A stretch of DNA of 64,000 nucleotides from Candidatus Buchananbacteria bacterium (GCA_013359225.1 JABWCG010000001.1:497627-561626); one strand, 5' to 3'; numbered from the stretch's first letter, positions 20,233 to 42,430 are shown. Made by a program: numbers and translations. The notes: a model not told the origin generated them from the sequence alone.

Positions 20233-20272
20233 ATTTTACCCTAAAAACCACCTTTCAAGCAAATAAGAAACA

Positions 20273-20303: not shown

Positions 20304-20333
20304 TTTAGGAAAGTCAAACCATTGTCAGGCTAT

Positions 20334-20801: not shown

Positions 20802-20882
20802 CTTTTCACCTCCTTTCATGGAAAAGAAATTATCAATTATATTAACTTACTAACAGTATACCACAAAAGCGACTTTTGGTAA

Positions 20883-25578: not shown

Positions 25579-25584
25579 TAGTTA

Positions 25585-25620
25585 ATTATATCATCTTTTA
25601 TTTAGCAAATAAACAAAATA
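25585..25620 (-). promoter_or_regulatory. Candidate promoter for the glycosylation cassette.
   Basis: Minus-strand TGATATAAT extended -10 with an upstream TTGTTT, between the pilin-2 terminator and the YfhO start. Confidence 0.25.
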
Positions 25621-25645
25621 AATCCCCCGCAAAACGCGGGGGATT
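25621..25645 (-). terminator. Rho-independent terminator after pilin 2.
   Basis: AATCCCCCGC-AAAA-CGCGGGGGATT followed by a T-run on the minus strand. Confidence 0.6.
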
Positions 25646-25667
25646 GGAAGCTTCCTGCATTTTAAAA

Positions 25668-26147
25668 TTACTGAATTCCGTCTGGGCTAGCAGTATGAGC
25701 GGTTCCGGACAAACCACCAGTCTGACCCTCTAAAGTAAAGGTAAGGCTGTAGGTGCTATTTGTCGAAGCAGTGTAGACGTAATCTGCGCCTCCCGGGCCA
25801 GGGTTAGTAGGCACTAAGCCCATGTAAGTTGTTCCACTCGGACAAGCTGCTGCTGAACCGACGAAACCACAGCTAGTACCGTTAGCACAAGCTGAACCAT
25901 CTCCGCGATAACATAGTACGTCTGATGAAGCAGTTAAACCCAAAGTTGCGGTCTGCACCGGATAACCACCGGCATCGTTGAAGTAAAGCTCCAACGCAGT
26001 CTGCACTTGTTTGATATCGGCAACACGTTTAGCGTCTCGGGCTTTCTCACGAGCTGAGTTCAATGCCACGACCGCTAAAGTTGATAGTAAACCAATAATG
26101 GCAATAACCACCAACAATTCAATTAATGTAAAACCTCGTTTTCTCAT
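25668..26147 (-). CDS. pilA: Type IV major pilin paralog 2.
   Basis: The first ~55 aa are identical to paralog 1 ([58 protein letters not shown]). The C-terminus is conserved ([22 protein letters not shown]) and the middle differs. The RBS is AAGGAAAGGGGGTG. Confidence 0.85.
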
Positions 26148-26170
26148 TTCGTCACCCCCTTTCCTTGGTC

Positions 26171-26193
26171 TCGTTCAAACAAATTTTGAACGA
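26171..26193. repeat. Inverted repeat hairpin between pilin 3 and pilin 2.
   Basis: TCGTTCAA-ACAAATT-TTGAACGA followed by a T-run on the plus strand. This is terminator-shaped in the orientation opposite to the genes. Confidence 0.4.
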
Positions 26194-26259
26194 ATTTTTG
26201 TTTATTTTTTAGTTATCAACAACCAAATATATTATACCAAAAAAATGAAAACTCAACAA

Positions 26260-26682
26260 CTAATACCCGTGAATCTCTTGCGGTCCACCATCTTCAAGAT
26301 AGTAAGTTATGGTAAACTCTTGTCCGTCGCTGTTATAACCATACACATGTTCATTCAAATTAAGCGGATCAATTGGCACGGTTGCCATATATAACTTACC
26401 CGTTTCAGTACCATTCAACGCTGGCGTTAACGCCGTAACCCAGTTAGCCTGAGCATTTTCCGGCAAAAGGTCAGCTAAAGGAAACCTTAAATTATCATCA
26501 AAGTATAAATAAAGTGCTAACTGGACCTGAGACGTGTCAGCCTTGCGTTTAGCGTCTCGAGCCCGAGTTCGAGCGATATTCACCGAGACCGTTGAGAGGC
26601 TAGATAAAATTCCGATAATACTGATAACGACCAACAACTCCACCAAAGTAAAGCCCCGTTTTTTTGATGTTGTTTTAAACAT
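26260..26682 (-). CDS. Type IV pilin paralog 3.
   Basis: Class III leader KKRG|FTLVELLVVISIIGIL with a divergent C-terminus. Length is 140 aa. It sits 18 nt downstream of pilC. Confidence 0.75.
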   Translation of the reverse strand: MFKTTSKKRGFTLVELLVVISIIGILSSLSTVSVNIARTRARDAKRKADTSQVQLALYLYFDDNLRFPLADLLPENAQANWVTALTPALNGTETGKLYMATVPIDPLNLNEHVYGYNSDGQEFTITYYLEDGGPQEIHGY

Positions 26683-26700
26683 AGTGCACCTTTCGATTAT

Positions 26701-27906
26701 TTATAAACTGGAAGCTAAATTATAAATTGGCAAAATAATAGCTGAAACCAACGCACCGACCGCTAGGCCCATCAACAACATAATCAACGGCTCAAGTAAC
26801 GTGACTAGATTGTTGACCATATTGTCTACTTCCCGACTGTAGAAATTAGCAATCTTGTCCAAAATTTCATCGATTCGGCCGGTTTTTTCTCCCAGACTTA
26901 ACATCTGCGACACCATCGGCGGTACTTCCCGAGTTCTCAAAAATACCGTAGCAATTGGATTACCATCTTCAACCTCTTCGGCTGTTTCACGAATTAAGTT
27001 GCGATAGACTGAATTGCCGACGACATCAGAAACAATCTGAAGACTTTTTGTCAGCGCAACGCCGCCGGTTGTTAAAGTGTACAAACTTCGTGCAAACCGC
27101 ACTAGAATAATTTTTTGAAACAGTTTGCCAAATATCGGCAATTTCAGAATCATTCTGTCCCATAGCAACTTCCCCTGATCGGTCCGGATCATTGCCTTGA
27201 CGCCGGCAAATAAACCGATGATCGCTGCAAGAATTGCCCACCAAAAACTGGTAAAAAAGTTACTGGTAAAAATCAAAATCTTAGTGGTTAAAGGAAGCTC
27301 AACTCCGGTTTCTGTTAAAATAGAAGTTAATTGCGGAATGACAAAAATCATCATCAATGTTCCGACAATCAATAAACCACCCACAATAAAAACCGGGTAA
27401 ATCATCGCTCCTCTGATTTTAGAGGACAAGTCGTAATCTTTTTCCTGCTGGTCAGCGAGGTAATTTAATACTTCATCAAGCTTACCAGACGTCTCGCCCG
27501 AACGGATAATATTAATAAAAAAATCATTAAAAATTTGCGGATGTCGCGATAACGCCGCCGACAGCTTAGCGCCGCCCTCAACATCATCGGCAACTTCTGA
27601 AACAACTGTTTTTAACACTGGACTTTCAGTCTGGCTGGTTAAAATACGTAATCCCTGAACCAGCGGGATTGTCGCTGAAACAATCACCGAAAGTTGTCGG
27701 GAAAAAATCACTAAATCCTTAATTTTTACCCGATTTAAAATTTTTAAAGACCGCTCCTGTAGGCCCATTTTTTCCACCTCAAGCGATAAAATGGTTAAAT
27801 CACGATCAACTAAAATTTCAGCCGCAACATCCTGGGACGCGGCCTGAATCATTCCTTCAATAACTTCATTATTTTCGTCAGTAGCTTTATAGCGAAAATA
27901 GGGCAT
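26701..27906 (-). CDS. pilC: Type IV pilus platform protein (GspF family).
   Basis: 401 aa with two GspF repeats and three TM segments. Confidence 0.85.
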   Translation of the reverse strand: MPYFRYKATDENNEVIEGMIQAASQDVAAEILVDRDLTILSLEVEKMGLQERSLKILNRVKIKDLVIFSRQLSVIVSATIPLVQGLRILTSQTESPVLKTVVSEVADDVEGGAKLSAALSRHPQIFNDFFINIIRSGETSGKLDEVLNYLADQQEKDYDLSSKIRGAMIYPVFIVGGLLIVGTLMMIFVIPQLTSILTETGVELPLTTKILIFTSNFFTSFWWAILAAIIGLFAGVKAMIRTDQGKLLWDRMILKLPIFGKLFQKIILVRFARSLYTLTTGGVALTKSLQIVSDVVGNSVYRNLIRETAEEVEDGNPIATVFLRTREVPPMVSQMLSLGEKTGRIDEILDKIANFYSREVDNMVNNLVTLLEPLIMLLMGLAVGALVSAIILPIYNLASSL

Positions 27907-27915
27907 AATAACAAA

Positions 27916-28989
27916 TTAAGCTTTAGCCATTGCCCGGAAACTTTCCGGATCAATCGCGTATTCAATCGCTTTATCAATTAATACCTGCCCCGACCGCACT
28001 AACTCTGCTAGAGACTGGTCAAGACTCGACATACCTTCAGCCCGTGAACTTTGTAAAATAGTATCAAGCTGTTTAATCCGACCCTGAGAGATTAATGACC
28101 GGACTGCCTCGGTAGCAATCAACACCTCTGTTGCCAACACTAATCCTCCGCCGGCTCGTGGAACTAATCGCTGGACAATCACCGCCAGCAAACTTTCAGA
28201 CAATAAAAGCTGACCGCGCTGTTTTTCTTCGCCCTTAAACGCCGCAAAAATTTCTTCAATCGTTTGAACTGCTGAAGTAGTGTCCATATTCAAAAAAGCC
28301 AGTCTGCCAGAATTGGCGAATTCCAGAATCAACGGAATTACTTCTGGCTCCTGATTCGCTTCAACGGCCACTACGTCAACATCAGCCTGCTGCGCCGAAC
28401 GCAGAGCACTGGTAAAGCTTAACGTGTCCTTACCGACTTCTCGCTGTTCAACAATACTTTGTTGGTTGGTAAAAATATATTCAATCGGCTTTTCAATTGT
28501 CACAATATTTTCCGCCCGGCTTTTATTGATTTCTTCAATCATTGAAGCGATAGTTGTTGTCCGTCCCGATCCATAGGGGCCGGCGACCACAATCAGGCCG
28601 GAAGTCTTATCGACCAAGCCATAGACTGACTTTGGTAAACCTAAATTAATCAATAACGGCGAACGCTCCGGAATCAGTCGCAGGTTGGCAGACAAAAACC
28701 CTTTCTGAAAAAAGAAACTGATTTTCAACCGAAATTTTTTTGCGACTTCTTTAGTAAAAACAACTGTCCGATCCTGGGCCAATTTTTCTTTTTGTTCAGC
28801 CTCAAGCCATTCCTCAGCCAATGATTTAATGAGGCTGTCGGTAATAATTGGTTCATCTCGCAGCTCCACCAACGAATCATCAATCCGAAAAGCCGGATAG
28901 CTGTTAACACTCAAATGAATCGTCGTCGCCTTTCGCTTCGCCGCCGCCGTCAAAATTTTATTGACAAAAATATTAGCTGAACTGTCCAT
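27916..28989 (-). CDS. pilT: Twitching-motility retraction ATPase.
   Basis: Walker A GLIVVAGPYGSGRTTT and a PilT-length hexameric secretion ATPase (357 aa). Confidence 0.8.
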   Translation of the reverse strand: MDSSANIFVNKILTAAAKRKATTIHLSVNSYPAFRIDDSLVELRDEPIITDSLIKSLAEEWLEAEQKEKLAQDRTVVFTKEVAKKFRLKISFFFQKGFLSANLRLIPERSPLLINLGLPKSVYGLVDKTSGLIVVAGPYGSGRTTTIASMIEEINKSRAENIVTIEKPIEYIFTNQQSIVEQREVGKDTLSFTSALRSAQQADVDVVAVEANQEPEVIPLILEFANSGRLAFLNMDTTSAVQTIEEIFAAFKGEEKQRGQLLLSESLLAVIVQRLVPRAGGGLVLATEVLIATEAVRSLISQGRIKQLDTILQSSRAEGMSSLDQSLAELVRSGQVLIDKAIEYAIDPESFRAMAKA

Positions 28990-28994
28990 AAAAC

Positions 28995-29381
28995 TTATTC
29001 GCCAATTGCTTGGTTAATTTTTTTAACAACCTCTGAAGGCATAAAATGGGCTTTAATCAAATAATCGCTTGCACCCAAATCAAGCCCACGTTTTACCTCG
29101 TCTTTTTGGCTTAAATTAGTTAATAAAACAACCGGAATATTTTTAATTTCTTTATCAGATTTTATTTTTGATAAAACCTCAAACCCATCCATCTTTGGCA
29201 AAATGATATCCAAAAGAATCAAGTCAGGTTTTTTCTCCTTAGCCATTTTAAAACCTTTTTCCCCATCATTAGCCAAAAAAACTTCATAGCCTTCCAAACT
29301 TAACTTGGTAGCATAAAGTTCTGCTAAAAATTCATCATCCTCCACTAACAGAATTGTTTTACTTTTTGCCATAATATTCAT
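28995..29381 (-). CDS. Single-domain CheY-like response regulator (PilH/PilG-like).
   Basis: Receiver motifs LLVEDDE, LILLDIILPKMDGFEV and a conserved K. It sits between pilB and pilT. Confidence 0.75.
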   Translation of the reverse strand: MNIMAKSKTILLVEDDEFLAELYATKLSLEGYEVFLANDGEKGFKMAKEKKPDLILLDIILPKMDGFEVLSKIKSDKEIKNIPVVLLTNLSQKDEVKRGLDLGASDYLIKAHFMPSEVVKKINQAIGE

Positions 29382-29412
29382 TACTAATTAATTTTTAACA
29401 TTGTAGCAATTA

Positions 29413-31158
29413 TTAATTTAATTGGGAAACTCTCATTACTTCGTCCAGCGTTGTTTCAGCTTTCAGCGCTTTAATCAGGCAATCTTGAGTCAGTGTAATA
29501 AAATTCTGGCTCTTTAACATTTTGTTGATTTCAATAGTATTACCGCCGCGGTTAATGGCTTCTCGAACTTCGGGAGTAATTTCTAAAATTTCTGATACGG
29601 CAGTTCGGCCTTGATAACCAAGATTACCACAACTGGCGCAGCCAGCACCTTTATAAAACACCGGCTTGTCAATATCAATTCCTTCTAACCCTTCTAAATA
29701 TTTCTTGGGAATCTGGCTTAACTCACTTTTAACTTTTTTCATCATTAGCTCGGGAACTTTTGTTTCCTGTTTGCAGTTTGGGCACAGCTTTCGCGCCAAT
29801 CGTTGAGCAATAACCACGTTCATGACTGACGACAACAAAAATGGTTCAGCGCCTAAGTCGATTAATCGGGGAATTGCACCAACTGAATTGTTAGTATGCA
29901 GCGTTGAAAGCATTAAGTGTCCGGTTAAGCTCGCATGAATAACTAATTCTGTTGTTTCCTTGTCTCTAATTTCTCCCAACATCACCACATTGGGATCTTG
30001 ACGCAAAATTGCCCGCAAACCAGAAGCGAAGGTATAATTGATTTCCTGATTAATCTGTGACTGGTTAACTCCATCAACATAATACTCAATCGGGTCTTCG
30101 AGCGTCACAATATTTATTCCGTCTTTGTTAATCATGGTCAAGATGGTATATAACGTCGTTGTTTTACCAGAACCAGTCGGACCAGTAAGCAGCAGCAAGC
30201 CGTTTGGTTTTTTAATCGCCTCTTTTATGGTTTCAATATGAATACTATTAAAACCAAGCTGATCTAAAGAAGGAATTTGGGCATTTGAATCCAAAATACG
30301 CAAAACAACTTTTTCGCCTTCAAATAACGGCAAAGTTGAAACACGAAAATCAATATCGCGGCCTTCAATATTCAACCGAATCCGGCCATCCTGAGGTTTT
30401 CGGGTTTCATCCAATTTTAAATTTGCCAACACTTTAATGCGCGCCACAATCGCCGAATGAATATATTTTGGTAAAACCAAAGAAGTTCGCAAGATACCGT
30501 CAATACGGTAGCGGACTTTCGTGTCTTTTGTGGTTGGCTCAATGTGAATGTCTGAAGCCCGGCCATCAATCGCGTGGCGAACAATTACTAAAACCATTTT
30601 AGAAACCGGCGCACTCTTAATAACCTCTTCCATCTCCTTCAAAGATTCCTCCGCGGTCTTTTCAACCACTTGTTGCTGTTCATTAATTCCGGCCAAAGCT
30701 TGTTTTACCTCTTCGCCCAACGCCTGATATTGCCGCAAACCTAAGCGAAAACTGGTTGGTGAAATGATGAAATATCTAATTTTTAATCCAGCCTTCTGAG
30801 CTAAAAATTCAACTGCTTCAATCGCTTTAAAATTTTGAGGGTTCACCAAACCAACTCGCAACTCCGACCCTTCTTTTTCAAAGGGTATCATTTGATAGTT
30901 TTCAGCAACCTCCTTAGGAATCAAATTCAAAACTTTTTTGTCAATCGTTTTATTTTGAAAATCGGCAACTGGCGTATTTAAAATTTTTGATTTGGTCGCC
31001 AACAGCTCTTTGTCGGTAATCAATCGTTCCTCAATAATAAGTTCTTCGGGAGTTTTTCGAACTTCCGAAGATTTTTTAAGCAAATCGTCAGCCGCCTGCC
31101 GAGTCAACAGATTACCGGCGACCAATGCTTCAACAAGTTGGGATTGATTTCTTAACAT
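29413..31158 (-). CDS. pilB: Type IV pilus assembly ATPase (GspE family).
   Basis: Walker A LLLTGPTGSGKTTTLY, a tetracysteine CPNC...CASC and N-terminal T2SE_N domains. Length is 581 aa. Confidence 0.9.
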   Translation of the reverse strand: MLRNQSQLVEALVAGNLLTRQAADDLLKKSSEVRKTPEELIIEERLITDKELLATKSKILNTPVADFQNKTIDKKVLNLIPKEVAENYQMIPFEKEGSELRVGLVNPQNFKAIEAVEFLAQKAGLKIRYFIISPTSFRLGLRQYQALGEEVKQALAGINEQQQVVEKTAEESLKEMEEVIKSAPVSKMVLVIVRHAIDGRASDIHIEPTTKDTKVRYRIDGILRTSLVLPKYIHSAIVARIKVLANLKLDETRKPQDGRIRLNIEGRDIDFRVSTLPLFEGEKVVLRILDSNAQIPSLDQLGFNSIHIETIKEAIKKPNGLLLLTGPTGSGKTTTLYTILTMINKDGINIVTLEDPIEYYVDGVNQSQINQEINYTFASGLRAILRQDPNVVMLGEIRDKETTELVIHASLTGHLMLSTLHTNNSVGAIPRLIDLGAEPFLLSSVMNVVIAQRLARKLCPNCKQETKVPELMMKKVKSELSQIPKKYLEGLEGIDIDKPVFYKGAGCASCGNLGYQGRTAVSEILEITPEVREAINRGGNTIEINKMLKSQNFITLTQDCLIKALKAETTLDEVMRVSQLN

Positions 31159-31166
31159 TTAAAAAA

Positions 31167-31478
31167 TTACTGCTCAAGGATACTAAAAGGTATGGATTGA
31201 AAGGGGTTTGGCCTCCCGAGTGCGCCAATTTCCACCGGCAAATTGCCATTTTCCTCTAATCTAGTATACGGTTCCTGAGATAAAAAGCTGGTTTCAAATT
31301 TTGTATTAATAGTCGGAACAACCAATGGTGTCACTTGAATCTCGGTTATTGCACTCGGCCGCATTAAATCTTTCAAAAAATTATCGTAAACCAAATAAGC
31401 AGTTACGCCAACTAAAACAGCCATAACTGAAAGAAGAAAAATTTTCTTTGGTCCTCTGATTTTCTTTGGCAACAGCAT
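31167..31478 (-). CDS. Small membrane-anchored T4P-associated protein (possible PilP analog).
   Basis: 103 aa with a single N-terminal TM. It lies between pilO and pilB. Confidence 0.4.
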   Translation of the reverse strand: MLLPKKIRGPKKIFLLSVMAVLVGVTAYLVYDNFLKDLMRPSAITEIQVTPLVVPTINTKFETSFLSQEPYTRLEENGNLPVEIGALGRPNPFQSIPFSILEQ

Positions 31479-31484
31479 AGGTTT

Positions 31485-32102
31485 TTACTCGGTATAGTAA
31501 GTGAATAAATTAACCGTGTAATCAGTTGATTCTGAATCAAAATAAACCGCATTAACATCAAACAGCCGTAGATTATTTTCCAAATCATCCAAAAAACCCT
31601 TGACCTCCCCGTACGTATTAGATTTTTGAACACCCACCAAAGTCAAACTGATATTCATTTTTTTAATGGTACTGGGGTTGATTTTCTCTTTACTTTTAGT
31701 AGCATCTTCCGCCGCCTCAGTGATCGTAATACCGGAAAGCAAAAAGTTATTTTTTTCTGCTAATGCCTCAAGCTGAACAAAAAGTCCAGCAACATCTTTT
31801 TCTCCGGGCAAAATCTTTTGCAATTTCGCTATTTGGGATTGATTAACCTGAGTGAAATTTCGGTTTAATTCTTCCAGTTGCTTAAGGTAGTCTTTCCGTT
31901 TTTCAAGCTCCTCTGCTAATGTTTTGGTGTTATAACTTCCACCAACACCAACCTGCTGGTATTTTGGTTCTAAAATAAAATAGTAACTCGTCCCAATAAT
32001 GATAATAATAACGATTAGAGTTAACCATTTATGATACTTAAGCAATGCCAATTTCAATTGACTGTTTTTTTCTGTTTTTTTCTGTTCAATATTCTTTGCC
32101 AT
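31485..32102 (-). CDS. pilO: Type IV pilus assembly protein PilO-like.
   Basis: N-terminal TM plus a coiled coil, downstream of pilN. Confidence 0.55.
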   Translation of the reverse strand: MAKNIEQKKTEKNSQLKLALLKYHKWLTLIVIIIIIGTSYYFILEPKYQQVGVGGSYNTKTLAEELEKRKDYLKQLEELNRNFTQVNQSQIAKLQKILPGEKDVAGLFVQLEALAEKNNFLLSGITITEAAEDATKSKEKINPSTIKKMNISLTLVGVQKSNTYGEVKGFLDDLENNLRLFDVNAVYFDSESTDYTVNLFTYYTE

Positions 32103-32105
32103 AAA

Positions 32106-33356
32106 TTAATTACCAGGTTTCAAAAACACTCCCGGCTGAAACTCTAAATTAATGTTGAAATTAACACCAAAGTTATCTCCAGTTTCAAAATCAAATTCTG
32201 TTGACGCTGAATCAATCCTAACCGATTTAACAAAATCAGTTGCTTCCTGAAAAGCGACTAATTGTCGGGCGACTGATTCATAATCTTTACCGACTGCCGC
32301 AAGCACGAGCTTATCCTGACCAGTCATCGCAAAATTTGTGAAATACACCTCATCAACGGTATTTTTTTCTAACAGGGCAAAAAATTTGGTCCAGTAAACA
32401 TGGTTATCTAACAAATCCTTAACTGTCTTCAATCGCTGCTGAAGATCAAGGGCGGCATCTTTACTGGCTTGGGCGCTGGTGATTTGTTTATCAAGATTAG
32501 AAATTTCTGTTTCAAAATCATTAATCTGTTTGGTGATATTAAATTGGTACCAGGTAATACTAAAGTAAGCCCCAACCACCAAAAGTACCACCACAAAAAT
32601 TAAAATAGCGCTCATGGTTAGCTTTCTGGGCAGTTCCAGCTCCGGATGTTTTGACAGCTCTTCAGGAATCAAATTAACGTCTAAGAATCCGGCCGCAGGA
32701 CCCTTAGATTTTTTATCCTTATGATGTTTTTTAAACCGGCTAGTTTTTTCTTGTTTACTTTCGGTTTTAGCCTCAGGGGTTTTATTGTCATTTATATCTT
32801 CAACTCTTGATTCGGCGGGTAGCTGTTTTTTACGGCCAAATGAAAAAACAAACCATTTCTTTTTTTCTTTTTTTTCAGCCTTGTCCTGTTGAGGCTTTTT
32901 AGACTCTATTTCCTCCACCACGGTTTCAGATGGCTTGACGGGCTTGAACGTAACTTCTTCAACCGGCCGAAACGAACTATCACGGGCAACCGACTCATCC
33001 AAACTTGATTTTTTAGCCTGACTAACGGATGATTGGGTGTTAACTTCCGGCTCATTTTCTTTCAAAGAAATTTTTGGAATAGTAAACTCCGTTCTAACAG
33101 CTCGCTTGGTTGCTTCAATATCCGAAGGGCTAATGTCCGACTCTTTAGCGGCAAAAGACATATTCGGCTTTTCTACTTTTTTAGCAAACAAGCGGCTCAT
33201 TAAAGATGGCTTGGAAGCCTTTAGCGGCTGAGTAATTTTATTGCTAGTTGGCGACGACATTGAAACGCTAAAAATCTTAGGCTTTTTGCGAACCGCTTCA
33301 AGCTCTTTTTTTTCCCTTGCTCTCAAATCGTCTGGTAGTAAATTAATTTCTGGCAT
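32106..33356 (-). CDS. pilN: PilN-like protein with a long Lys/Glu-rich N-terminal extension.
   Basis: Begins MPEINLLPDDL, the PilN INLLP signature. A TM sits around residue 260 and a Lys-rich low-complexity insert is present. Confidence 0.6.
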   Translation of the reverse strand: MPEINLLPDDLRAREKKELEAVRKKPKIFSVSMSSPTSNKITQPLKASKPSLMSRLFAKKVEKPNMSFAAKESDISPSDIEATKRAVRTEFTIPKISLKENEPEVNTQSSVSQAKKSSLDESVARDSSFRPVEEVTFKPVKPSETVVEEIESKKPQQDKAEKKEKKKWFVFSFGRKKQLPAESRVEDINDNKTPEAKTESKQEKTSRFKKHHKDKKSKGPAAGFLDVNLIPEELSKHPELELPRKLTMSAILIFVVVLLVVGAYFSITWYQFNITKQINDFETEISNLDKQITSAQASKDAALDLQQRLKTVKDLLDNHVYWTKFFALLEKNTVDEVYFTNFAMTGQDKLVLAAVGKDYESVARQLVAFQEATDFVKSVRIDSASTEFDFETGDNFGVNFNINLEFQPGVFLKPGN

Positions 33357-33359
33357 ATA

Positions 33360-34544
33360 TTATTCAATATCGCGCATTGCTAAACCAATGGCAACTGAAA
33401 ATCGTGGGCCAATTTCATCAAGCACCGGCTTTAATTCTTCCGGATAAATTACCCGTGCCCACGGATCACCCAAAAACACTCTCAGGCCCAAGGAGCTGGA
33501 CAGGTATTCGGGCAAATTAAGCAACAATGACGACCCGCCGGTCAAAACTATTTTTTCAATATTTTTTTGTCCTTGGTTTTTATACAGATTCAAACTATAC
33601 CTGAGCTCATCAATAATCGGCGTTAAGGTTTGTTCAATCGTTTTAGGAACGCTTCCCTGTCCCTTACGATCCGGACTCATGCCAATATCATATTTAAACT
33701 GTTCCGCCCGGCTCAAGCTGACATTTAAACTGTTTGCAATCGCTTTGGTAATCGTCAAACCGCCAACATCAATACTGCGATTCAAAATTGGAATACTATT
33801 AACCACAACTGAAATGTTAGTTACCACCGAACCAATGTCAACCACCATCAGGGCCGATTTATCGTTTCCAACCAACGACCTGATTAAAGCAAATGATTCC
33901 GTATCAAGGCTTAATAAATTCAAACCACTGCCCTTAAAAATATCAATGTAGCGCTTCACCAAATCTTTAGGCGCCGCTGTCAAAAGTATTTTAGTGTATT
34001 TTTTCGGGGTCGTGCTTTTAATTTTCAAAAAACCCTTAGTTCGCAATTCACCAACAGAATCGAGATTATCAGAACCATTACCGTTTTGATTTTTAGCGTC
34101 AGTGACCTGATCACCGTCGAAATCTTCCAAAATTTTCCAGTCTAAAATCATTTCCTCGATTGGTAACGGAATGACCTTTTTTGCCTCCCACTTAACCGCC
34201 GTAGCCAAATCTTTTTTTGCCATCCCTGGCAGATTCAAAATTGAAGAAAAAACCGAATAGGCCGGCAACGAAGTCACCGCTTTTGTTGTCGTCACCTGAG
34301 CCTGAGAATACACCTGTTTAATCAGTTTTGAAGTTTCATTCTTCGAATCGCCGCCTTCCTTGTTCTCGGACTTGTCAATTTCCCGATCAATAAACCCATA
34401 GGTAACCAGGCGTGGACGGCCACCTTCATTTTTTAGTTCTACTATTTTGATGCTGTTCGTATCTACATCAACACCTAAATAACTTTGTGAAGAAGAAAAT
34501 AATCCCATAGTTACGTTTATCTGGAAAATGTTTCTGATCGCCAA
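33360..34544 (-). CDS. pilM: Type IV pilus assembly ATPase-fold protein PilM.
   Basis: Actin-like fold segments LGVDVDTNSIKIVEL and VVDIGSVVTNISVV. Alternative start ATG 34508 would avoid overlap with the upstream gene. Confidence 0.75.
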   Translation of the reverse strand: MAIRNIFQINVTMGLFSSSQSYLGVDVDTNSIKIVELKNEGGRPRLVTYGFIDREIDKSENKEGGDSKNETSKLIKQVYSQAQVTTTKAVTSLPAYSVFSSILNLPGMAKKDLATAVKWEAKKVIPLPIEEMILDWKILEDFDGDQVTDAKNQNGNGSDNLDSVGELRTKGFLKIKSTTPKKYTKILLTAAPKDLVKRYIDIFKGSGLNLLSLDTESFALIRSLVGNDKSALMVVDIGSVVTNISVVVNSIPILNRSIDVGGLTITKAIANSLNVSLSRAEQFKYDIGMSPDRKGQGSVPKTIEQTLTPIIDELRYSLNLYKNQGQKNIEKIVLTGGSSLLLNLPEYLSSSLGLRVFLGDPWARVIYPEELKPVLDEIGPRFSVAIGLAMRDIE

Positions 34545-36979
34545 ATCGGTAAACTCTGAGCAAAATCCGCCATTCCCGGAGGCGTATTCGCCAACAGTCG
34601 ACCGTCATAAATAATAATTTCAGAGCCCTTAAAGGTCGCCTCTTGATCACCGAGCGGGAATTCTCGTTCAAGGAAAAACTTCCTGGCCATCATTAATCCG
34701 GAAACCGTCAAACGATTCTGACAGGCGGTTGAATTATAGCAACTGTGGATTTCACCACATCCCGGTACTGATACTCCCTCTTCCTGACTGCAGCTATTCT
34801 GACCGTCACCAATAACGATAAAGTTTCCAGCCAGCTCACTAACCCCTGGCGCAATGTATAAATCACCCCGAACGATCCACGCTACGGAAGCTAAATTGCG
34901 AAATCTTGTTAAGGCATCCGAATCGTCATAACTGCTATTGGCATTAATGGTAAGGTCACCATTAACAATAATTGTGCCGGCCGCATTAACAAAATTGGTG
35001 CTATTTAAAAACTCAACAAAATTATTAATAGTCAAATCTCCGTCACGATAATAAATCTTTCCGTCCATCGGCTGAGTAATGTCGCTTTGACTGTTAATTT
35101 TTACCACTGTACGCCCAATCTCGTTGACGCAAGTATTCCCTGAAGTCGGCACACAAATCAAGCTGTCTAAATCAAGTTTGCCTAAAATATTTGAATACCT
35201 GGTTTCTGGCGTTGGGAAGTTAATCGGACCAAAATAGGGGCTGACAACATCCTGGCCACGAGCTGATCTGAAATTGACAATACCGCCGCCGGACAAAATT
35301 CGATACGTAGCGTTGTAGCTTGGCGAACCACTGCCGGTTAAGCCTTCTTTGGCATAAATATCCCCATATTTCGTTTGTAGCCATGGCGGAACAGTAAAAC
35401 CGTTAGAACCAAATTCAATCCAACCAAGTCCCCGGAGAGTGCCGGCGCCATCCAAAAATGAATTCCAGGCAAACCCACCCAAACCAAAACGCTGCTCAAT
35501 AAAACAGCTATCTCCTGTTGGACAGTCGCTATCGGCCTGGCAGGCCACGGCTGTTTGTCCTTGGGAAACAACATTACTGACGTCGTAATATACCGTTACT
35601 TCTACCGAATCAACCTCTGCGCCGCTTGGAACCCAATCGTCACCCCTAATTCGATATGCAACACCAAAATTTGAATTGTTAACGTCTTGCGGGGTCAAAT
35701 TAGTTCCCCAAGTATTGCCGGCCCCGCCGTAGGTTACAAAATCAAGCGCACCATTAGGCAGATTGTCGCCAACCGCCTGATTTGTTCCGGCAACCACCTG
35801 GCCATTAACTACTAAACTGACATCATAATCTTTGACAAACGTTCCCGCAGGAGCAGCATTATAGATAATTTCTAAATACGGATCCTGCCCAGTCCCCGCC
35901 TGTTCTGAAGTGTATATCCCAACGTCGGACACTCCGAAACCACCACTAGGTTGCACACCCGATATATCGTGGCCTTCGCGTAGCCCAAGCTTGGTATAAC
36001 CAGTTTTATTAATCCACGAAATGCCGGTGGTGTTAAACGGCAAAGAAAAAACCGGATTGGTTCCAATATCTGTACCAAATACTCTGCTACTTCCTTCAAC
36101 CGGACTATTAATGGCGCCACACAAACCAAAATCAGCAGCGCCCAAGCTACTAACCGACGACTGGGTTGATTGTACAACCGTGACAAAGCCCCATTCGTCA
36201 GGATATAAAAAGTTAACGGCTGAATTTAACACCAGCGCCGCTGAATTAATTGTCGCGTCGTCAGGCAAGGCTGAGGTGTCAAACGGGAAAAACGCCCGAT
36301 ACAAAAACCTATTGCTATTAAAAGGTGATTCGCCGCCGCCAGTATAGGCGTAAGCACCAGTATGATCAGACGAAGTGCCGGCAGTCGCAGTCCGAACCGT
36401 TTCCCAGGTGGTTGTATCAGTACCGGAATAAACAACGTAACCGTCACCCGCCAACGCGTTAATGTCCACCACAACGGCCAAAACTTTCTGACCAAATAAA
36501 GTTTTAACATGATCCAGAAGCGTTAGCTTGGTTTGAGCCACAAAGGCTTCAGGTGTGGTGGTGGCTGTTTCAATCTGATACCAGTCGCGGCCATTTTTCT
36601 CAAACGCCGGTGCGGTATAAAACTTAGTGATGTATTCCTCCTCTTTCTTACCATTATCAGCTTCTTGGATTCCCTTAAGAAAAGTCTGGGAATTGCTAGT
36701 TCGCTTGGTAATATCTTCCGTCAAGCCTTTGTAGACTTCCTGCGGCACCTTAACCTCTGAAACGTAATTATAGACTACAACCGAATCAGTGTCGGCTGCA
36801 TCAATAATTCCGTATGCTAAAATTTTTTCCTTAGGTGATTTCAAAATCTCATTTTCGCTCAAACCTCGCTGCTGATCGTAGTGCTGCCAAAGAGTTATGC
36901 CGATTATAAGCAACAGCGCTACTATTACTAGGCTGATGATAATGATAATTTTTTTTCCAAGGCTAATCGACATAGTCAA
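34517..36979 (-). CDS. Large (820 aa) membrane-anchored extracellular protein that is T4P-associated; candidate adhesin.
   Basis: N-terminal TM and no catalytic motifs. It shares GW-type motifs (LGWIEFGSNGF) with the adjacent 319-aa protein. Confidence 0.5.
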   Translation of the reverse strand: MTMSISLGKKIIIIISLVIVALLLIIGITLWQHYDQQRGLSENEILKSPKEKILAYGIIDAADTDSVVVYNYVSEVKVPQEVYKGLTEDITKRTSNSQTFLKGIQEADNGKKEEEYITKFYTAPAFEKNGRDWYQIETATTTPEAFVAQTKLTLLDHVKTLFGQKVLAVVVDINALAGDGYVVYSGTDTTTWETVRTATAGTSSDHTGAYAYTGGGESPFNSNRFLYRAFFPFDTSALPDDATINSAALVLNSAVNFLYPDEWGFVTVVQSTQSSVSSLGAADFGLCGAINSPVEGSSRVFGTDIGTNPVFSLPFNTTGISWINKTGYTKLGLREGHDISGVQPSGGFGVSDVGIYTSEQAGTGQDPYLEIIYNAAPAGTFVKDYDVSLVVNGQVVAGTNQAVGDNLPNGALDFVTYGGAGNTWGTNLTPQDVNNSNFGVAYRIRGDDWVPSGAEVDSVEVTVYYDVSNVVSQGQTAVACQADSDCPTGDSCFIEQRFGLGGFAWNSFLDGAGTLRGLGWIEFGSNGFTVPPWLQTKYGDIYAKEGLTGSGSPSYNATYRILSGGGIVNFRSARGQDVVSPYFGPINFPTPETRYSNILGKLDLDSLICVPTSGNTCVNEIGRTVVKINSQSDITQPMDGKIYYRDGDLTINNFVEFLNSTNFVNAAGTIIVNGDLTINANSSYDDSDALTRFRNLASVAWIVRGDLYIAPGVSELAGNFIVIGDGQNSCSQEEGVSVPGCGEIHSCYNSTACQNRLTVSGLMMARKFFLEREFPLGDQEATFKGSEIIIYDGRLLANTPPGMADFAQSLPIWRSETFSR

Positions 36980-36991: not shown

Positions 36992-37951
36992 TCAATAAGA
37001 CGCTTTCACTTTAAATTTAACTTTAACACCGGTGATCACGGCGTTTGTCGGAATATTAAATCCGAAATTACTGGACCATAAACCATCAGATAATTGCTGA
37101 GTACTTGGCGTGGTGACAGTCTGAGCAACACTGCCGTCTTCGGTAGCGGCATTTTGCGGATTAGTCCACGCCGCCGAAGCACTTTCACTGTGACTAGTAA
37201 CCGTGCCGGAAGTTTTAACTGTTGAATAGCTGTTGGTGACCACGGCATCAGGCAAATTAACAGGTGTGCTGCACGTTCCACCAAAGTCCCCCTCGGTTAG
37301 GCGCACCTGATAATCAGACGAGCTACAATTATCATCACAACCCAAAGAAATTAAGCCGTTGTCGCCCAAAGCAATGGCCTTAGCCCAGCCAACAATCGGC
37401 GGATTATCGGTACCGTTGGCGGTAGCAGTAGCTGCCCAACCGCCGGATGGAATCAATGAACCATAATCAGCCGGATTGCACCCGCCAGTGGCAAATTCAC
37501 AAATACGGGACGGATCACACTGTTGACCAAAACAAACCCAACCGATGCTGTCGGCCCAGGAAAATCCGGTAACCTGATTATTGGCATCAATTTGAGTGTA
37601 ATAGGTTACTGTCTGATCGGTACAAGCGGAAGTTGAAACCCCTGGCGCCAGATATTTCCAATCGCAGTTATCGCTATTCAAAGACAGCCAGCCAAAATTT
37701 TCACTCCAGGCCCAGCCCATTAACTTGGCGCCACAGCTTGCTGTACAGCGCGGCGTATCCCCAGACTCGTCGCACTTCTCAAATAACCCGTCGCTGTTTG
37801 GCGATTGTACAATACCGTCACCACACACAGCGGGTGGCGGGGTTACTGTTTGAGCCTGCACTAAAATTGCTCCGGCTAACGCCGTAACAGTCAGCAGACA
37901 AAAAGTTAACGCGACTCTTTTAATCATTGGTGTTTGTTTTGAAGTTAACAC
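36992..37951 (-). CDS. Secreted Cys/Trp-rich repeat protein.
   Basis: Signal peptide plus a motif repeated three times: GWAWSENFGWLSL, GFSWADSIGWVCF and GWAKAIALGDNGLISLGC. It has many Cys. Confidence 0.5.
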   Translation of the reverse strand: MLTSKQTPMIKRVALTFCLLTVTALAGAILVQAQTVTPPPAVCGDGIVQSPNSDGLFEKCDESGDTPRCTASCGAKLMGWAWSENFGWLSLNSDNCDWKYLAPGVSTSACTDQTVTYYTQIDANNQVTGFSWADSIGWVCFGQQCDPSRICEFATGGCNPADYGSLIPSGGWAATATANGTDNPPIVGWAKAIALGDNGLISLGCDDNCSSSDYQVRLTEGDFGGTCSTPVNLPDAVVTNSYSTVKTSGTVTSHSESASAAWTNPQNAATEDGSVAQTVTTPSTQQLSDGLWSSNFGFNIPTNAVITGVKVKFKVKASY

Positions 37952-37983: not shown

Positions 37984-40900
37984 TTATTTAGTGCCCTTTA
38001 ACTCATCTAGCTGGACTTGCAGTTTCACAATCTGTTCTTGCTGTTCTTTGATAGCATTTAACATAGCGTAAATAATTGAATTCTGATTTAGCCCGAGATA
38101 CCCCTTGTCGTCGTACGAAACCGCTTCGGGAATTATTGGCTCAACGTCCTGAGCAATCAAACCAACCTGCTGTTTAGTTGAAAGGTTATACGGGTTACCA
38201 GCCTTGAAACTAAAGACCACCGGATTTAAAGCTAACACTTCATCAAGACCATACTGGTATCGGCCGGCAATATTTTTCAACCGAGCGTCTGATTTCGGAT
38301 CAGTACCTTCGCAGATACCCGAAATATTACAGGTTTCGTCAGTGGCACAAGTACCGCAAGTACCACCACAACCATTATCACCACATTCTTTGCCGGAACA
38401 ATTTGGTGTACAGGCTGAAACAATACCGCCAGACCAGCTGGTTTTACATTCGCCGTTAGCAAAACAAAGTTTATCAACGTACACACCACGACCGCCCGTA
38501 AAGTACCCTGAGTATCCCGTGGAATTGGTAACTGATCCCTGGACACCAATACCGTTAGGCGTAGCCGAAAAACCAAAGACACCAACACCATAACCGCCGG
38601 TACCACCGACGTTTTGAGCCAAGGAGCCCCAGACTGAGTCTCCCACGCCAGCTACGCTATCTTGAGTATTATTAGTACCGACCACCGCTTCAGTGCTCTG
38701 CCCAGAAATCGCTGTACGTAATCGAACAGCTGCATGAGTAGCAGTGCCAATACCAACACTACCATCTTTATCAATTTCCATTCTAACCTGTGGCGGCACC
38801 GCGCCAGTCGCGCCGGTTCGCGGTTGAGTAAAGAATCTAATTTTACTGCCGCCGCTAGAAGAATTAGTATAGCGCCCAGACACAAAATCAACCACGCCAT
38901 AATTGGCATCACTAGTATTCCAATAAGTGTTAACCAATAAACCGTCATATTCACCAGAATTAGGATAAGTCTTTTCACCAGCATTAGCACCGCTGTAAAT
39001 ATGAAGTTCGGCGTTAGGGGTAGCGGTATGGATACCGACATTGCCAACGTTCGCATTATAGATATTGTTACCCGAAGTTACCCAGGTAGGCTTATTGAAC
39101 AAAATGGCGTTAATGATCATCTGAACATCTACCGCATTAACACTGCCGTCACGATTAAGATCAGACCTTGAACGGTAAATTGTGGTACAGCTGGCAACAC
39201 CAAGCGTACAATTAACCACGATTGTTTGATCTGCCTCATCTACCTTACCGTCAGCATTAACATCATAACCTAAACCGCCCGGAGTTGAACTGCCACCGGC
39301 AGCACCAATACAATTGCCACTGCCGTCACAGATTGTTCCGTTTGCTTTAATGTTGCCGGCTACGTGTAATTTGTTCCCTGAGGTATTAGTTGGCACTATA
39401 CCAAGACCAACATTGCCGTTCGTTGATATTAAGAAGAAATTCTGCCAACCAGCTTGGGCCGTAGTCAAGTTATCTTGGCGATAAATTCTAAACAACTTAT
39501 TGTAATTTGAGCTACTTGGGTAATAATAGTTATCCATCACCCAAACGTCTGAAGTCAGCGGATTACTTGGACCATTACCTAAAGTCATGCGAGCTCCATC
39601 AAGACCACTGGCTAATATCTGCCCATCAACATGAAGATCAGACACCGGGTTAGTTACGCCAATACCGGTATTGCCATTAGGATTGATATTAAAGGCCTCA
39701 ACATGAGAACCATTTGCCGCCCCGGTGTAATAGTTAATCCGAAACGCATTATCAAGCGTGACACCAGCATCATCCTTACCACTTCGGTGCCAAATGCCCC
39801 AATATTGATTACCAGTACCCCAACCGATACCGTTATCCCACAAACGAATACCGGAATAAGCGTATGGCGGACGATTGGCATAGGTAGTGCCGCTATAGGT
39901 GTCAAGCGCATTGCCGTTCACCGCATTAATAGTTAATCCGTTATTACCGCTATCCATGACCGTACCGTCATTCCAGTTTCCGCCGGAAGTGTTAATTCCG
40001 ATTCGACCGTCATTTTTAATAACAAGTGGAGTTTTTCTGCCGGTATTCGCATTAGCCCCAGCTGCCGCGTCAGGTACCACGCTAAACATCCAGTCTCCCC
40101 ATTCTTTCATTTCAATTGTTCCCGAAGGGCCGCGTCTGGTTTTTTTCATCGTATCAGTTGCCGCGTCATAATATTCATTCACCCGAAAACCGCCACCAAA
40201 AATAGCACCATAACTAGAACGATTGGAATTGTTAAGTTCTGCCACGGTTGATGGAAACGCAAGGCTTTCGTTATAATAGGCTTCAATTTCCGCCTGGCCG
40301 CCACCCGTTGTCGGGTTTGATCTAAAGAAAGTAGTGCCGGCCACATCAAGTCGCGCTTGAGGGTTGGTTACACCGATACCCACAAAACCAAACTTATTGT
40401 TGTCAGCGGTGTTAATCCAAATACCCTGCCCGCCCGGATAGGTTGGGTTGGCGACAACTAAAGCAAATTTCTCATTGATATCTGAAAAACGGCTGTTCGG
40501 ACCAACATTACCGACAATACCCGAAGCATTTTGTCCCAATAACTCAATACGAGAAATTTTATCCGGACCTTCGTCAATTAATATCTGCGGCACGCCCGAA
40601 CTTCTAAATGGCCTGGTAGCCGACATTGCTGCCGGTAGCCCTGCGCTTTGCAGCTGGGCAACAGTCAGGCCGCACTGGGTAATCCCGGCGGAAGTTAGAC
40701 AAAGGTCGGTGTGAGCGTCAATCGTACCGCGGGCGCTTAGCCTGTTTAAAGCAATTTCACCGTTGGTAATAGCAAACGTATTACTGTCAGACAGGGTCGT
40801 TAATGCCTTGTCTTGAGAGAGTTTAATACCAATTGAATCAGCTCCTGTTACATTCATTCGTCCTAAATATGTCGCTGAACCAGCACCGGTACCGGGAACA

Positions 40901-41688
40901 AACACTCCACCCTCACCAATACAATTGCCAGTGCCGTCACAAATTGTTCCCGAAGCTGTAATATTGCCCGTAACGCTCAATGGCTGATTGGCAACAATTT
41001 GATCTCGCTTTAAGGTCAATACCGCCTGGTCATTACCGCTCGACAAATAATTCAAGTTATTTACAAACACCAACTGGTCGTTGGTATCATCACCCCACTT
41101 AACAATCAATTGATCACCATCGCCGCTTCCAGTACCGCCCTGAGCCACCGTGCCTTCAGCAAAAGACGGATATACTTCAAACCAGTCATTCAAAAAATGA
41201 AACTGCGTTTTGCCGCTGTTATAAACGCGCAAACCAAGATCGTTAGGATCGTCACCACCGTCGTTATAAATCCAACCGCGGCTGTCCTGGCTCCAAAAAC
41301 TGCCACCACCAGTAACACCATCCCAAGAGCTAACACAGCTTGCCGCATCATAAGGCGGTAAACATACCTGGGGAGTTTTGATCGCACCCTGACCGATAAT
41401 TACTTCATTAGAAGTGCCTTCCGCGACAATGACCTGGCTTTCAACCTTAGCCGGACCGGTAATATTAATTTGGGCATTTTGCCGCTGGCTGGAGCTGTTA
41501 AAAATAAACCCGGGAGGGTTACCTTCCGGTGGGTTACCCGGAGGCCCTTGGTATTGAGCCAAAACCACCGCACTGGTAACAAAAAAAGTGACAGCAAACA
41601 CCGTCACCATTACGACCACTGAACTAAACTTTGTTGTTAGTTTAACTTGGTTTTTCATAAATTTACCCACGATTCTCGTTACAAACAC
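37984..41688 (-). CDS. Giant (1234 aa) surface fibre protein with a C-terminal phage tail-fibre-type intramolecular chaperone (peptidase S74) domain and dockerin-like Ca-binding repeats.
   Basis: The N-terminus has a TM anchor. GTICDG(T/S)GNCIG occurs twice. Dockerin/EF-hand-like pairs are DVNADGKVDEAD and DLNRDGSVNAVD. A Cys-rich knot precedes SDARLKNIAGRYQYGLDEVLALNPVVFSFK...VGLIAQDVEPIIPEAV...YLGLNQNSIIYAMLNAIKEQQEQIVKLQ, which matches the S74 autoproteolytic chaperone consensus. Confidence 0.75.
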   Translation of the reverse strand: MFVTRIVGKFMKNQVKLTTKFSSVVVMVTVFAVTFFVTSAVVLAQYQGPPGNPPEGNPPGFIFNSSSQRQNAQINITGPAKVESQVIVAEGTSNEVIIGQGAIKTPQVCLPPYDAASCVSSWDGVTGGGSFWSQDSRGWIYNDGGDDPNDLGLRVYNSGKTQFHFLNDWFEVYPSFAEGTVAQGGTGSGDGDQLIVKWGDDTNDQLVFVNNLNYLSSGNDQAVLTLKRDQIVANQPLSVTGNITASGTICDGTGNCIGEGGVFVPGTGAGSATYLGRMNVTGADSIGIKLSQDKALTTLSDSNTFAITNGEIALNRLSARGTIDAHTDLCLTSAGITQCGLTVAQLQSAGLPAAMSATRPFRSSGVPQILIDEGPDKISRIELLGQNASGIVGNVGPNSRFSDINEKFALVVANPTYPGGQGIWINTADNNKFGFVGIGVTNPQARLDVAGTTFFRSNPTTGGGQAEIEAYYNESLAFPSTVAELNNSNRSSYGAIFGGGFRVNEYYDAATDTMKKTRRGPSGTIEMKEWGDWMFSVVPDAAAGANANTGRKTPLVIKNDGRIGINTSGGNWNDGTVMDSGNNGLTINAVNGNALDTYSGTTYANRPPYAYSGIRLWDNGIGWGTGNQYWGIWHRSGKDDAGVTLDNAFRINYYTGAANGSHVEAFNINPNGNTGIGVTNPVSDLHVDGQILASGLDGARMTLGNGPSNPLTSDVWVMDNYYYPSSSNYNKLFRIYRQDNLTTAQAGWQNFFLISTNGNVGLGIVPTNTSGNKLHVAGNIKANGTICDGSGNCIGAAGGSSTPGGLGYDVNADGKVDEADQTIVVNCTLGVASCTTIYRSRSDLNRDGSVNAVDVQMIINAILFNKPTWVTSGNNIYNANVGNVGIHTATPNAELHIYSGANAGEKTYPNSGEYDGLLVNTYWNTSDANYGVVDFVSGRYTNSSSGGSKIRFFTQPRTGATGAVPPQVRMEIDKDGSVGIGTATHAAVRLRTAISGQSTEAVVGTNNTQDSVAGVGDSVWGSLAQNVGGTGGYGVGVFGFSATPNGIGVQGSVTNSTGYSGYFTGGRGVYVDKLCFANGECKTSWSGGIVSACTPNCSGKECGDNGCGGTCGTCATDETCNISGICEGTDPKSDARLKNIAGRYQYGLDEVLALNPVVFSFKAGNPYNLSTKQQVGLIAQDVEPIIPEAVSYDDKGYLGLNQNSIIYAMLNAIKEQQEQIVKLQVQLDELKGTK

Positions 41689-41875: not shown

Positions 41876-42430
41876 ATGAACAATACATTATGGATAATTT
41901 TGGGGGTCGTAGCCGTTATTGCGGTGTGGCTTATTGGGGTTTTTAATAGCTTAATTAGGCTAAAAATTAGAACCCAGGAAGCTTTTTCAGACATTGACGT
42001 CCAATTAAAACGTCGGCACGACTTAATCCCAAATTTAATTGAAACAGTAAAGGGATATGCACAACATGAGAAAGGTTTATTTGAAAAAGTGACTCAGGCT
42101 CGGGCTGCCGCTATCAACGCCAAGGGTGCTGCCGAAAAAGGCCAGGCGGAAAACATGCTAACCGACGCACTGAAGTCCGTTTTCGCTGTTGCCGAGAATT
42201 ATCCAGACCTCAAAGCTTCACAAAACTTTTTACAGCTTCAAGATGAGCTATCTGATACTGAAAACAAAATTCAAGCCGCCAGACGATTCTACAACGGCAA
42301 CGCCCGAGACTTTAACATTAAGATTGAAGTATTTCCTAATAATCTCGTAGCCGGCATGTTAGGCTTCACTAAATTTGAATTCTTCCAAGCAGACGAAACT
42401 GAACGAAAAAACGTCGAAGTTAAATTCTAA
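41876..42430 (+). CDS. lemA: LemA family protein.
   Basis: N-terminal TM plus the LemA domain (DIDVQLKRRHDLIPNLIETVKGYAQHEK...). Confidence 0.85.
   Translation: MNNTLWIILGVVAVIAVWLIGVFNSLIRLKIRTQEAFSDIDVQLKRRHDLIPNLIETVKGYAQHEKGLFEKVTQARAAAINAKGAAEKGQAENMLTDALKSVFAVAENYPDLKASQNFLQLQDELSDTENKIQAARRFYNGNARDFNIKIEVFPNNLVAGMLGFTKFEFFQADETERKNVEVKF

Follow-up and report, generated by a model that had tools for sequence, protein, structure and literature searches.

A tail-fibre-type gene with a peptidase S74 domain at the head of the type IV pilus genes in a Candidatus Buchananbacteria genome

In a 64,000-nucleotide stretch of DNA from a metagenome-assembled genome of Candidatus Buchananbacteria bacterium (GCA_013359225.1, JABWCG010000001.1:497627-561626), analysed as a whole and called the window below, a gene for a large protein of the phage tail-fibre type (the fibre) lies directly before two further genes and the genes of a type IV pilus, all of them on the minus strand. 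The maximal open reading frame (ORF) of the fibre, 37984..41688 (-), has 1234 codons and starts with GTG at 41688; a first-pass annotation of this DNA had already called it, and the call stands. ATG 41658 is the likelier start, giving a product of 1224 aa that begins with MKNQVKL and ends at the stop codon 37984-37986. This product is 100% identical to the NCBI protein P0001 (1224 aa, Candidatus Buchananbacteria, 601-kb contig), which already bears the name 'tail fiber domain-containing protein'. Residue positions of the fibre follow the 1224-aa numbering throughout.

Modules of the fibre

The gene and its modules are listed here from the N-terminus to the C-terminus.

37984..41658 (-): fibre gene, 1224 aa, identical to P0001
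41554..41658 (-): aa 1-35, signal peptide or signal anchor (MKNQVKLTTKFSSVVVMVTVFAVTFFVTSAVVLAQ), read directly from the sequence
41254..41553 (-): aa 36-135, conserved N-terminal family module (YQGPPGNPPEGNPPGFIFN ... INITG ... VCLPPYDAASCVSSW), from alignments and a profile match with E 3e-28
40915..40950 (-): aa 237-248, first junction loop GTICDGTGNCIG, a motif within the 62-nt direct repeat D3
39304..40389 (-): aa 424-785, central shaft with VGIGxxxPxxxL capping-loop-like motifs, ending in the second loop GTICDGSGNCIG; from identity to the related fibre P0002, a match to phrog_9942 and motifs
39100..39267 (-): aa 798-853, dockerin type I module with two D-x-N-x-D-G-x-V-D/N-x-x-D calcium loops, Pfam E 5.8e-12
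38467..39081 (-): aa 860-1064, distal Gly-rich shaft with capping-loop-like motifs at 874 and 968; top relatives include P0095
38311..38466 (-): aa 1065-1116, Cys-rich module with 10 Cys, from a motif scan; it would be the C-terminal tip once the fibre is cleaved
37987..38292 (-): aa 1123-1224, peptidase S74 chaperone and C-terminal coiled-coil helix, from Pfam, an S74 profile of our own, PDB 6f45 and phage records

The Pfam family Peptidase_S74 (PF13884) matches residues 1123-1180 over profile positions 1-57 of 58 with E 1.1e-10 (42 bits against a cut-off of 22), and our own S74 hidden Markov model (HMM) scores the fibre at 128 bits. The C-terminal 178 aa match PDB 6f45, the chaperone end of the distal subunit of the phage S16 long tail fibre. 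The domain starts with an intact Ser-Lys dyad, S1123-D-A-R-L-K1128, in which SDARLK aligns with SDxRxK of 6f45 and of other S74 proteins, and it ends in a heptad-like helix. Judged by these matches, the fibre ends in a genuine S74 intramolecular-chaperone domain. Self-cleavage is predicted to occur directly before Ser1123 (codon 38290-38292), Lys1128 acting as the general base.

The fibre N-terminus consists of a K-rich segment and about 22 hydrophobic residues followed by V-L-A|Q. The same layout of a K-rich part, a hydrophobic part and A-x-A/W is also present in other members of the fibre family described below. It reads as a Sec signal peptide with predicted cleavage at V-L-A|Q, which makes a permanent membrane anchor less likely; the earlier description of the protein as membrane-anchored is thus better replaced by that of a protein with a cleavable Sec-like leader. 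Pfam gave no match to a prepilin leader or N_methyl motif for the fibre but did so at E ~1e-9 for the true pilins of the window, and no Pfam match in the fibre pointed to a PilY1-type C-terminal beta-propeller.

After the leader, the order of modules is the N-terminal module (N-module), the first loop, a Gly/Asn/Thr-rich shaft, the second loop, the dockerin, the distal Gly-rich part, the Cys-rich knot and S74. The motif GTICDGxGNCIG is present twice, at 237 and 774, and both loops are encoded by the direct DNA repeat D3 (62 nt, 40914-40975 and 39303-39364, 82% identity), a possible recombination point for the exchange of modules. No template/variable-type repeats of a diversity-generating retroelement were found, the 62-nt junction motif being the sole fibre-internal repeat. 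PHROG tail-fibre profiles match the C-terminus of the fibre and residues 531-688 of the shaft (phrog_9942, E 1.4e-11). The capping-loop motif V-G-G/N-pi-x-x-P-x-x-x-L occurs as VGIGVTNPQARL at 426, VGIHTATPNAEL at 874 and VGIGTATHAAVRL at 968, plus looser copies; the consensus of the capping-loop-like motif within the fibre family is GxVGIGxxxPxxxLxV.

The dockerin stands directly after the second GTICDGxGNCIG loop. Dockerin_1 (PF00404) covers profile positions 2-57 of 57 with 46 bits against a cut-off of 22.9, and both calcium loops, DVNADGKVDEAD at 799 and DLNRDGSVNAVD at 833, are intact. All motifs listed in the first-pass annotation (the calcium loops, the GTICDGxGNCIG pair, the Cys-rich knot and SDARLK) were found, and its assignments of an S74 domain and a dockerin were both confirmed by the profile searches given above.

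Among the top matches of an exhaustive search, many large secreted proteins that are otherwise unrelated contain the Cys-rich module (pattern C..NC.GKECGDNGCGGTCGTC...C....G.C), frequently as 10-30 copies. No Pfam family matches this module even at E = 1, and an NCBIfam scan of the fibre returned no match. A gene for a DsbA-like thioredoxin is located at 11982-12719 (-); it is consistent with extracytoplasmic disulfides in the Cys-rich secreted proteins of the region.

The fibre family and its place beside the pilus genes

Between the fibre gene and pilM stands the coding sequence of the GW protein, a conserved secreted protein of ~550 aa that directly precedes pilM across Patescibacteria. Its 78 indexed homologues all come from Patescibacteria. 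When one genome per GTDB species was scanned, 125 relatives were confirmed and 80 loci kept; of the 72 loci having enough sequence, 65 encode PilM at most 5.5 kb downstream of the GW gene. The family counts given here rest on these 80 species-level loci, which were chosen by the GW gene and not independently of the pilus context.

By its alignments, the window fibre belongs to a family of Patescibacteria proteins that have a signal peptide and, after it, a conserved N-terminal module of ~100 aa. In this family, the leader is followed by W-x-(G/E)-P-T-x-x-P-P-x-G-N-(V/P)-x-x-(P/F)-(L/I), then by ...NISG... and a Cys pair. The HMM of the N-module, which recognises the window fibre, found fibre genes at 28 of the 80 GW loci. 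At 25 of them the fibre is directly upstream of the GW gene, and at three (L015, L019 and L022) it lies between the GW gene and pilM, L020 being a weaker case of the latter kind. The gene order in L019 and L020 is a LemA-like gene, then, divergently, GW, fibre, one to two genes, PilM, PilN, PilO and PilB. The link is kept while GW proteins diverge to ~30% identity and while the gene order changes; the coupling of fibre and pilus genes therefore survives both, and it exceeds adjacency in one genome. The first-pass statement that such a fibre is not a standard type IV pilus component holds as a general rule, yet fibre genes are common at this slot within the clade.

The same slot is occupied in another Patescibacterium by P0002 (1150 aa). 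There the genes for RecG, RadA, Clp, M48 and LemA are followed, in the opposite direction, by those for P0002, a 545-aa protein, PilM, PilN, PilO, a 103-aa protein and PilB, with a response regulator, PilT, PilC and pilins after PilB. P0002 has the leader, the N-module and the central shaft in common with the window fibre (36-39% identity) and possesses neither the dockerin nor S74. Another relative, P0095, is found in the arrangement M48, LemA and, divergently, the fibre and the next gene, as in the window.

The distal parts differ among the family members. Pfam found S74 in 4 of the 29 members, YadA_head in 3 and a dockerin in 2; S74 and non-S74 tips are thus interchangeable within the family. 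None of these three modules is present in 22 members, all but one of which have no Pfam match at all. Besides the window fibre, only those of L034, L044 and L052 end in S74, all with S-D-x-x-x-K and Pfam E 1e-15 to 1e-16. YadA_head is a module of trimeric adhesins. Its repeats (best E 7.9e-69 among members) replace S74 in L033 (7020-9845) and two other members, which retain the pre-GW slot and the N-module. The S74 domain of the window fibre is 50% identical to that of P0004, an otherwise unrelated protein from a mobile-element region of an unrelated genome, and just 26-33% identical to the other pilus-linked S74 domains.

An exhaustive HMMER search of 1.84 billion representatives returned 15,777 proteins at E<=1e-3 and 23 at E<=1e-30; successive segments of the fibre have different top relatives, and most matches cover the Cys-rich module or S74 alone. 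None of the relatives of the fibre body that possess the N-module (P0092, P0095, P0112 and P0130) has S74. By these comparisons, the bodies and tips of the fibres are mosaic. A word-index search with the fibre yielded nine relatives. A profile search with the N-module in an index of 5.8 billion proteins yielded 3 short matches only, due to the fact that the module is too short and divergent for an index of that size. The GNPPGFI subfamily was found in a scan of metagenome contigs at 2 loci, one of them cut by the contig end and the other probably identical to L008.

Neighbouring genes in the window

The remaining genes of the string and its upstream boundary are as follows.

41876..42430 (+): LemA, divergent, upstream boundary of the fibre-pilus string; from gene calls, the arrangement recurring elsewhere
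36992..37927 (-): 311-aa secreted protein (319 aa from GTG 37951), 41% identical to aa 4-212 of an unsplit 545-aa orthologue
34517..36973 (-): 818-aa protein (820 aa by an earlier start) with a new transmembrane helix, a ~490-aa insert and the GW C-terminal half (beta-solenoid)
19477..34544 (-): type IV pilus genes overall, from Pfam scans
33360-34544 (-): pilM, Pfam E 2e-38
32106-33356 (-): pilN-like, weak Pfam match, mainly by position
31485-32102 (-): pilO-like, weak Pfam match, mainly by position
between the pilO-like gene and pilB (-): 103-aa ORF, by gene order
29413-31158 (-): pilB, Pfam
28995-29381 (-): response regulator (receiver domain), Pfam
27916-28989 (-): pilT, Pfam
26701-27906 (-): pilC, Pfam
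26260-26682 and 25668-26147 (-): pilins, Pfam
between the pilins 25668-26147 and 20334-20819 (-): YfhO-, methyltransferase- and TMEM260-like genes, Pfam
20334-20819 (-): pilin, Pfam
19477-20232 (-): prepilin peptidase, Pfam

The first-pass annotation described separate 319-aa and 820-aa proteins after the fibre. Both genes exist; they are rather the two halves of one conserved GW protein. The smaller product is the GW N-terminal half (a Cys-rich repeat and GW repeats) with an extension of ~95 aa. The 545-aa orthologue corresponds to the N-terminal two thirds of the 319-aa protein (41%) and to the C-terminal 330 aa of the 820-aa protein (53%), matching both in turn, and the GW gene has therefore been split and expanded in the window. 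The split form adds ~590 aa, including the new transmembrane helix, and recurs in another metagenome (P0053 in L090, 61% identity), where pilM is again the next gene. In a fold search, the GW C-domain had solenoids of ice-binding proteins as its top matches; the beta-solenoid fold is also common to ComZ and tapirins. Residues 237-314 of a GW protein (P0010) form a strongly conserved yet low-confidence segment. The gaps of 32 and 12 nt reported earlier between the first genes of the string apply to the GTG/TTG starts; the likelier ATG starts give 56 and 18 nt.

The co-directional pilus string of the first-pass annotation was upheld for PilM, PilB, the response regulator, PilT, PilC and the pilins. 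For PilN and PilO, the Pfam matches are weak (E 0.003 and 0.004, below the cut-offs) and the assignments rest mainly on position. The pilins at 20334-20819 and 25668-26147 are paralogous, with 77-82% DNA identity at both ends. They bracket genes for a YfhO-like membrane protein, a methyltransferase and a TMEM260-like O-mannosyltransferase, which could be a pilin glycosylation island. The GC content is 0.445-0.459 across the fibre and GW genes (34000-42000) against 0.387-0.41 in the core pilus genes (28000-34000); the higher values may stem from Gly-rich composition or from a different origin.

On the divergent upstream side are the genes for LemA, an M48 peptidase, a Clp ATPase, RadA and RecG. 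The divergent arrangement of LemA and fibre was seen in ~20 loci, and the 187-nt intergenic region 41689-41875 is a likely promoter region. A second fibre was considered in the ORF 60565-63984 (1139 aa) and rejected: it is an unrelated helical/charged protein with no match to the N-module HMM. This ORF sits a few kb from genes resembling those of type IV secretion systems, located within 53763-63984 (-) and including a PrgI family gene (56348-56806) and a VirB4/TraG-type ATPase gene (53763-55655); several ORFs there, the 1139-aa one among them, have no Pfam match.

Readings of the fibre and their meaning

The window fibre is best read as a secreted, probably homotrimeric fibre of the tail-fibre type, a surface adhesin of a tiny episymbiotic and probably host-dependent Patescibacterium, genetically coupled to the type IV pilus; the probability of this reading is put at about 0.56. 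The fibre would be exported by Sec via its N-terminal signal peptide, and the ~100-aa N-module would hold it on a putative partner, either on the cell surface or in the pilus machinery. The shaft would be built of mosaic segments with VGIGxxxPxxxL capping loops, two GTICDGxGNCIG disulfide junctions and an inserted Ca2+-binding dockerin. S74 is predicted to drive the folding of the trimer and then to remove itself by Ser1123/Lys1128 autocleavage, which would leave the Cys-rich knot as the exposed tip. The fibre would then provide host-specific binding, with specificity set by the variable distal parts, and the pilus from the downstream genes, predicted to be transcribed together with the fibre gene and to cooperate with its product, would provide reach and retraction. 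Exchange of tips and bodies (S74, YadA-head and others) between lineages may diversify the host range.

Several observations weigh against this reading. Trimerisation and cleavage are predicted for this fibre by likeness to other systems, and its S74 is atypical in being preceded by a Cys-rich knot, with no obvious triple beta-helix. An AlphaFold2 model of the N-terminal 230 aa, made from a 6-sequence alignment, reached a predicted local distance difference test (pLDDT) score of only 36. Scans for promoter and terminator consensus sequences were at chance (19 vs 15.7 expected and 15 vs 12.1 expected) and are uninformative on co-transcription. In the 48 window ORFs that were scanned, Pfam detected no cohesin that could partner the dockerin. 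No N-module fibre was detected at 52 GW-pilM loci out of 80, most of them of the Uhrbacteria type (upstream sequence is shorter than 2.5 kb at 19 of the 80), which means that the pilus can do without such a fibre. P0090 (L087 2142-2891, 249 aa), with a very similar leader (AWNEPTAAPTGNNVAAPVNVG), is encoded among small genes of unknown function and an rve integrase fragment; lying away from pilus genes, it means that the leader motif is not exclusive to pilus loci. The synteny block includes the unrelated LemA, M48, Clp, RadA and RecG genes, so the positional conservation may partly reflect relatedness.

The last two points also speak for the alternative that survives best, although it is unlikely: the protein could be a general surface or envelope fibre, S-layer-associated or serving cell-cell or particle adhesion, and the adjacency to pilus genes would be inherited gene order with no functional coupling. 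The conserved block does reach into housekeeping genes, the closest loci belong to related Buchananbacteria-type genomes, and the dockerin suggests a cohesin-bearing scaffold and not pili. This is opposed by the persistence of the association down to ~30% GW identity and in loci where the fibre gene has moved between the GW gene and pilM. Moreover, the genes all read in one direction with little space between them, and the 32-56 nt behind the fibre stop codon contain no terminator-like hairpin.

A closer tie to the pilus can be imagined in two forms. In the first, which is rather speculative, the N-module is a docking signal through which one trimeric fibre or another (S74-capped, YadA-head or with other tips) would be placed on the type IV pilus machinery, the GW beta-solenoid protein serving as the adaptor. 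In the second, which is more doubtful, the fibre would itself be borne by the pilus, on the tip priming complex or the shaft, like PilY1/PilC or Thermus ComZ, with the N-module, possibly together with the GW protein, as the docking element. Pilus-borne placement would agree with fibre genes that tightly adjoin the GW gene and pilM, or stand between them in three loci, with a mature N-terminus conserved across otherwise unrelated fibres and with the ComZ-like neighbouring GW protein. It sits badly with the lack of a prepilin leader, N_methyl motif or PilY1-type domain in the fibre and with the many GW-pilM loci where no fibre was detected, and the solenoid resembling ice-binding proteins is a generic fold. 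The pilus tip adhesin proposed in the first-pass annotation was not borne out, synteny being the one argument for placing the fibre at the tip.

S74 domains cap endosialidases and other tailspike depolymerases. An enzymatic, tailspike-like fibre degrading the surface polysaccharide of the host is very improbable here: the Pfam name of S74, 'Chaperone of endosialidase', and a weak Glyco_hydro_20b match in one family member (E 3e-4) point to it, but Pfam, NCBIfam and PHROGs revealed no catalytic domain in the fibre.

The fibre could finally be a phage remnant, that is, a leftover receptor-binding protein of a prophage or tailocin or a very recent capture from a phage of the candidate phyla radiation (CPR). 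The S74 domain, the PHROG matches, the NCBI name and the mobile-element surroundings of P0004, its closest S74 relative, are in line with this. So are 160 GenBank phage tail-fibre records found by tblastn, but these match only residues 1114-1224, at 33-37% identity, and the N-module and centre are common to non-S74 cellular orthologues in the same chromosomal slot. Scanning 48 window ORFs revealed no capsid, terminase, baseplate or integrase gene and no other phage gene, and the fibre gene is not inside a prophage; the prophage reading was rejected on the gene content around the fibre (LemA, M48 peptidase, Clp ATPase, RadA, RecG and pilus genes). The suggestion of a domesticated phage receptor-binding protein did not fare well, given that the phage BLAST similarity is confined to the last ~110 aa and S74 is a minority tip (4/29). 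Since the S74 cap is a swappable minority option in a cellular fibre family, wholesale capture of a phage gene is unlikely, and the remnant is the least probable of the explanations.

The adhesin reading can be compared with known systems. The mosaic adhesive trimer (MAT) fibres of Bdellovibrio bacteriovorus have a signal peptide, an invariant N-domain of ~130 aa thought to bind a predator surface element, and a trimeric shaft of mosaic make-up that carries the capping-loop motif V-G-G/N-pi-x-x-P-x-x-x-L; their tips are S74 in 13 proteins (SDxxxK) and non-S74 in 8, self-cleavage has been proven for Bd3182, and a possible interplay with type IV pili was raised by the authors (PMC10769870). The fibre resembles them in being cellular and not prophage-encoded, in the predicted signal peptide followed by an analogous conserved N-terminal module, in the long mosaic shaft with V-G-x-x-x-x-P-x-x-x-L and S74 or non-S74 tips, and in belonging to an organism that must recognise other bacteria. 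Unlike them, it comes from a different phylum, a monoderm-like Patescibacterium; one fibre gene stands at the head of a pilus string, whereas Bdellovibrio has 21 paralogues; and the fibre has a dockerin and a Cys-rich knot. The N-module, with its consensus W-x-G/E-P-T-x-x-P-P-x-G-N, is not known to be homologous to the MAT N-domain.

With phage fibres such as the K1F endosialidase, the T5 L-shaped fibre pb1 and S16 gp37, the window fibre shares a C-terminal S74 with the Ser-Lys dyad and the helix after it, as well as sequence matches to 6f45, the GenBank tail-fibre genes and the shaft PHROGs. In contrast to them, it has no phage neighbourhood and a predicted Sec signal peptide, its N-terminus consists of the module of a cellular family where phage fibres have a domain for attachment to the baseplate or tail, and the BLAST similarity is limited to its C-terminal end. 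PilY1/PilC, Thermus ComZ and the Caldicellulosiruptor tapirins are likewise large adhesins encoded in or beside pilus clusters, and the GW protein has the beta-solenoid fold seen in ComZ and tapirins; the fibre differs in having neither a pilin N-terminus nor a PilY1 domain, and its pilus link is known from gene position. Its dockerin is a full-length match with both calcium loops intact, similar to cellulosomal and non-cellulosomal type I dockerins, but it is placed mid-shaft and not at the terminus of an enzyme, and the scanned ORFs of the 64-kb window include no cohesin.

S74-capped fibres in non-phage bacterial genes (MAT) and the NCBI tail-fibre label are already known. In cultivated Saccharibacteria, type IV pili and protein adhesins are required for epibiotic growth (PMC10633639). 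No paper linking S74 or tail fibres with CPR bacteria was found in the literature searched, where the N-module family, its coupling to GW and pilM-pilB-pilT-pilC, and the diversity of its tips and modules (S74, YadA head and dockerin) appear undescribed.

Host recognition and attachment by Patescibacteria (CPR), which make up a large share of bacterial diversity, are largely unknown. The mosaic fibre family would give candidate determinants of host specificity for uncultivated lineages of the Parcubacteria type, and its tip sequences could mark host range in metagenomes. The family would extend the principle that a predator or episymbiont uses phage-style fibres from Bdellovibrio to a second, unrelated lifestyle group. 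If the N-module is indeed a docking signal, this would amount to modular, pilus-delivered host recognition, the cellular counterpart of the swapping of receptor-binding proteins in phages, and would explain the choice of host by ultrasmall episymbionts.

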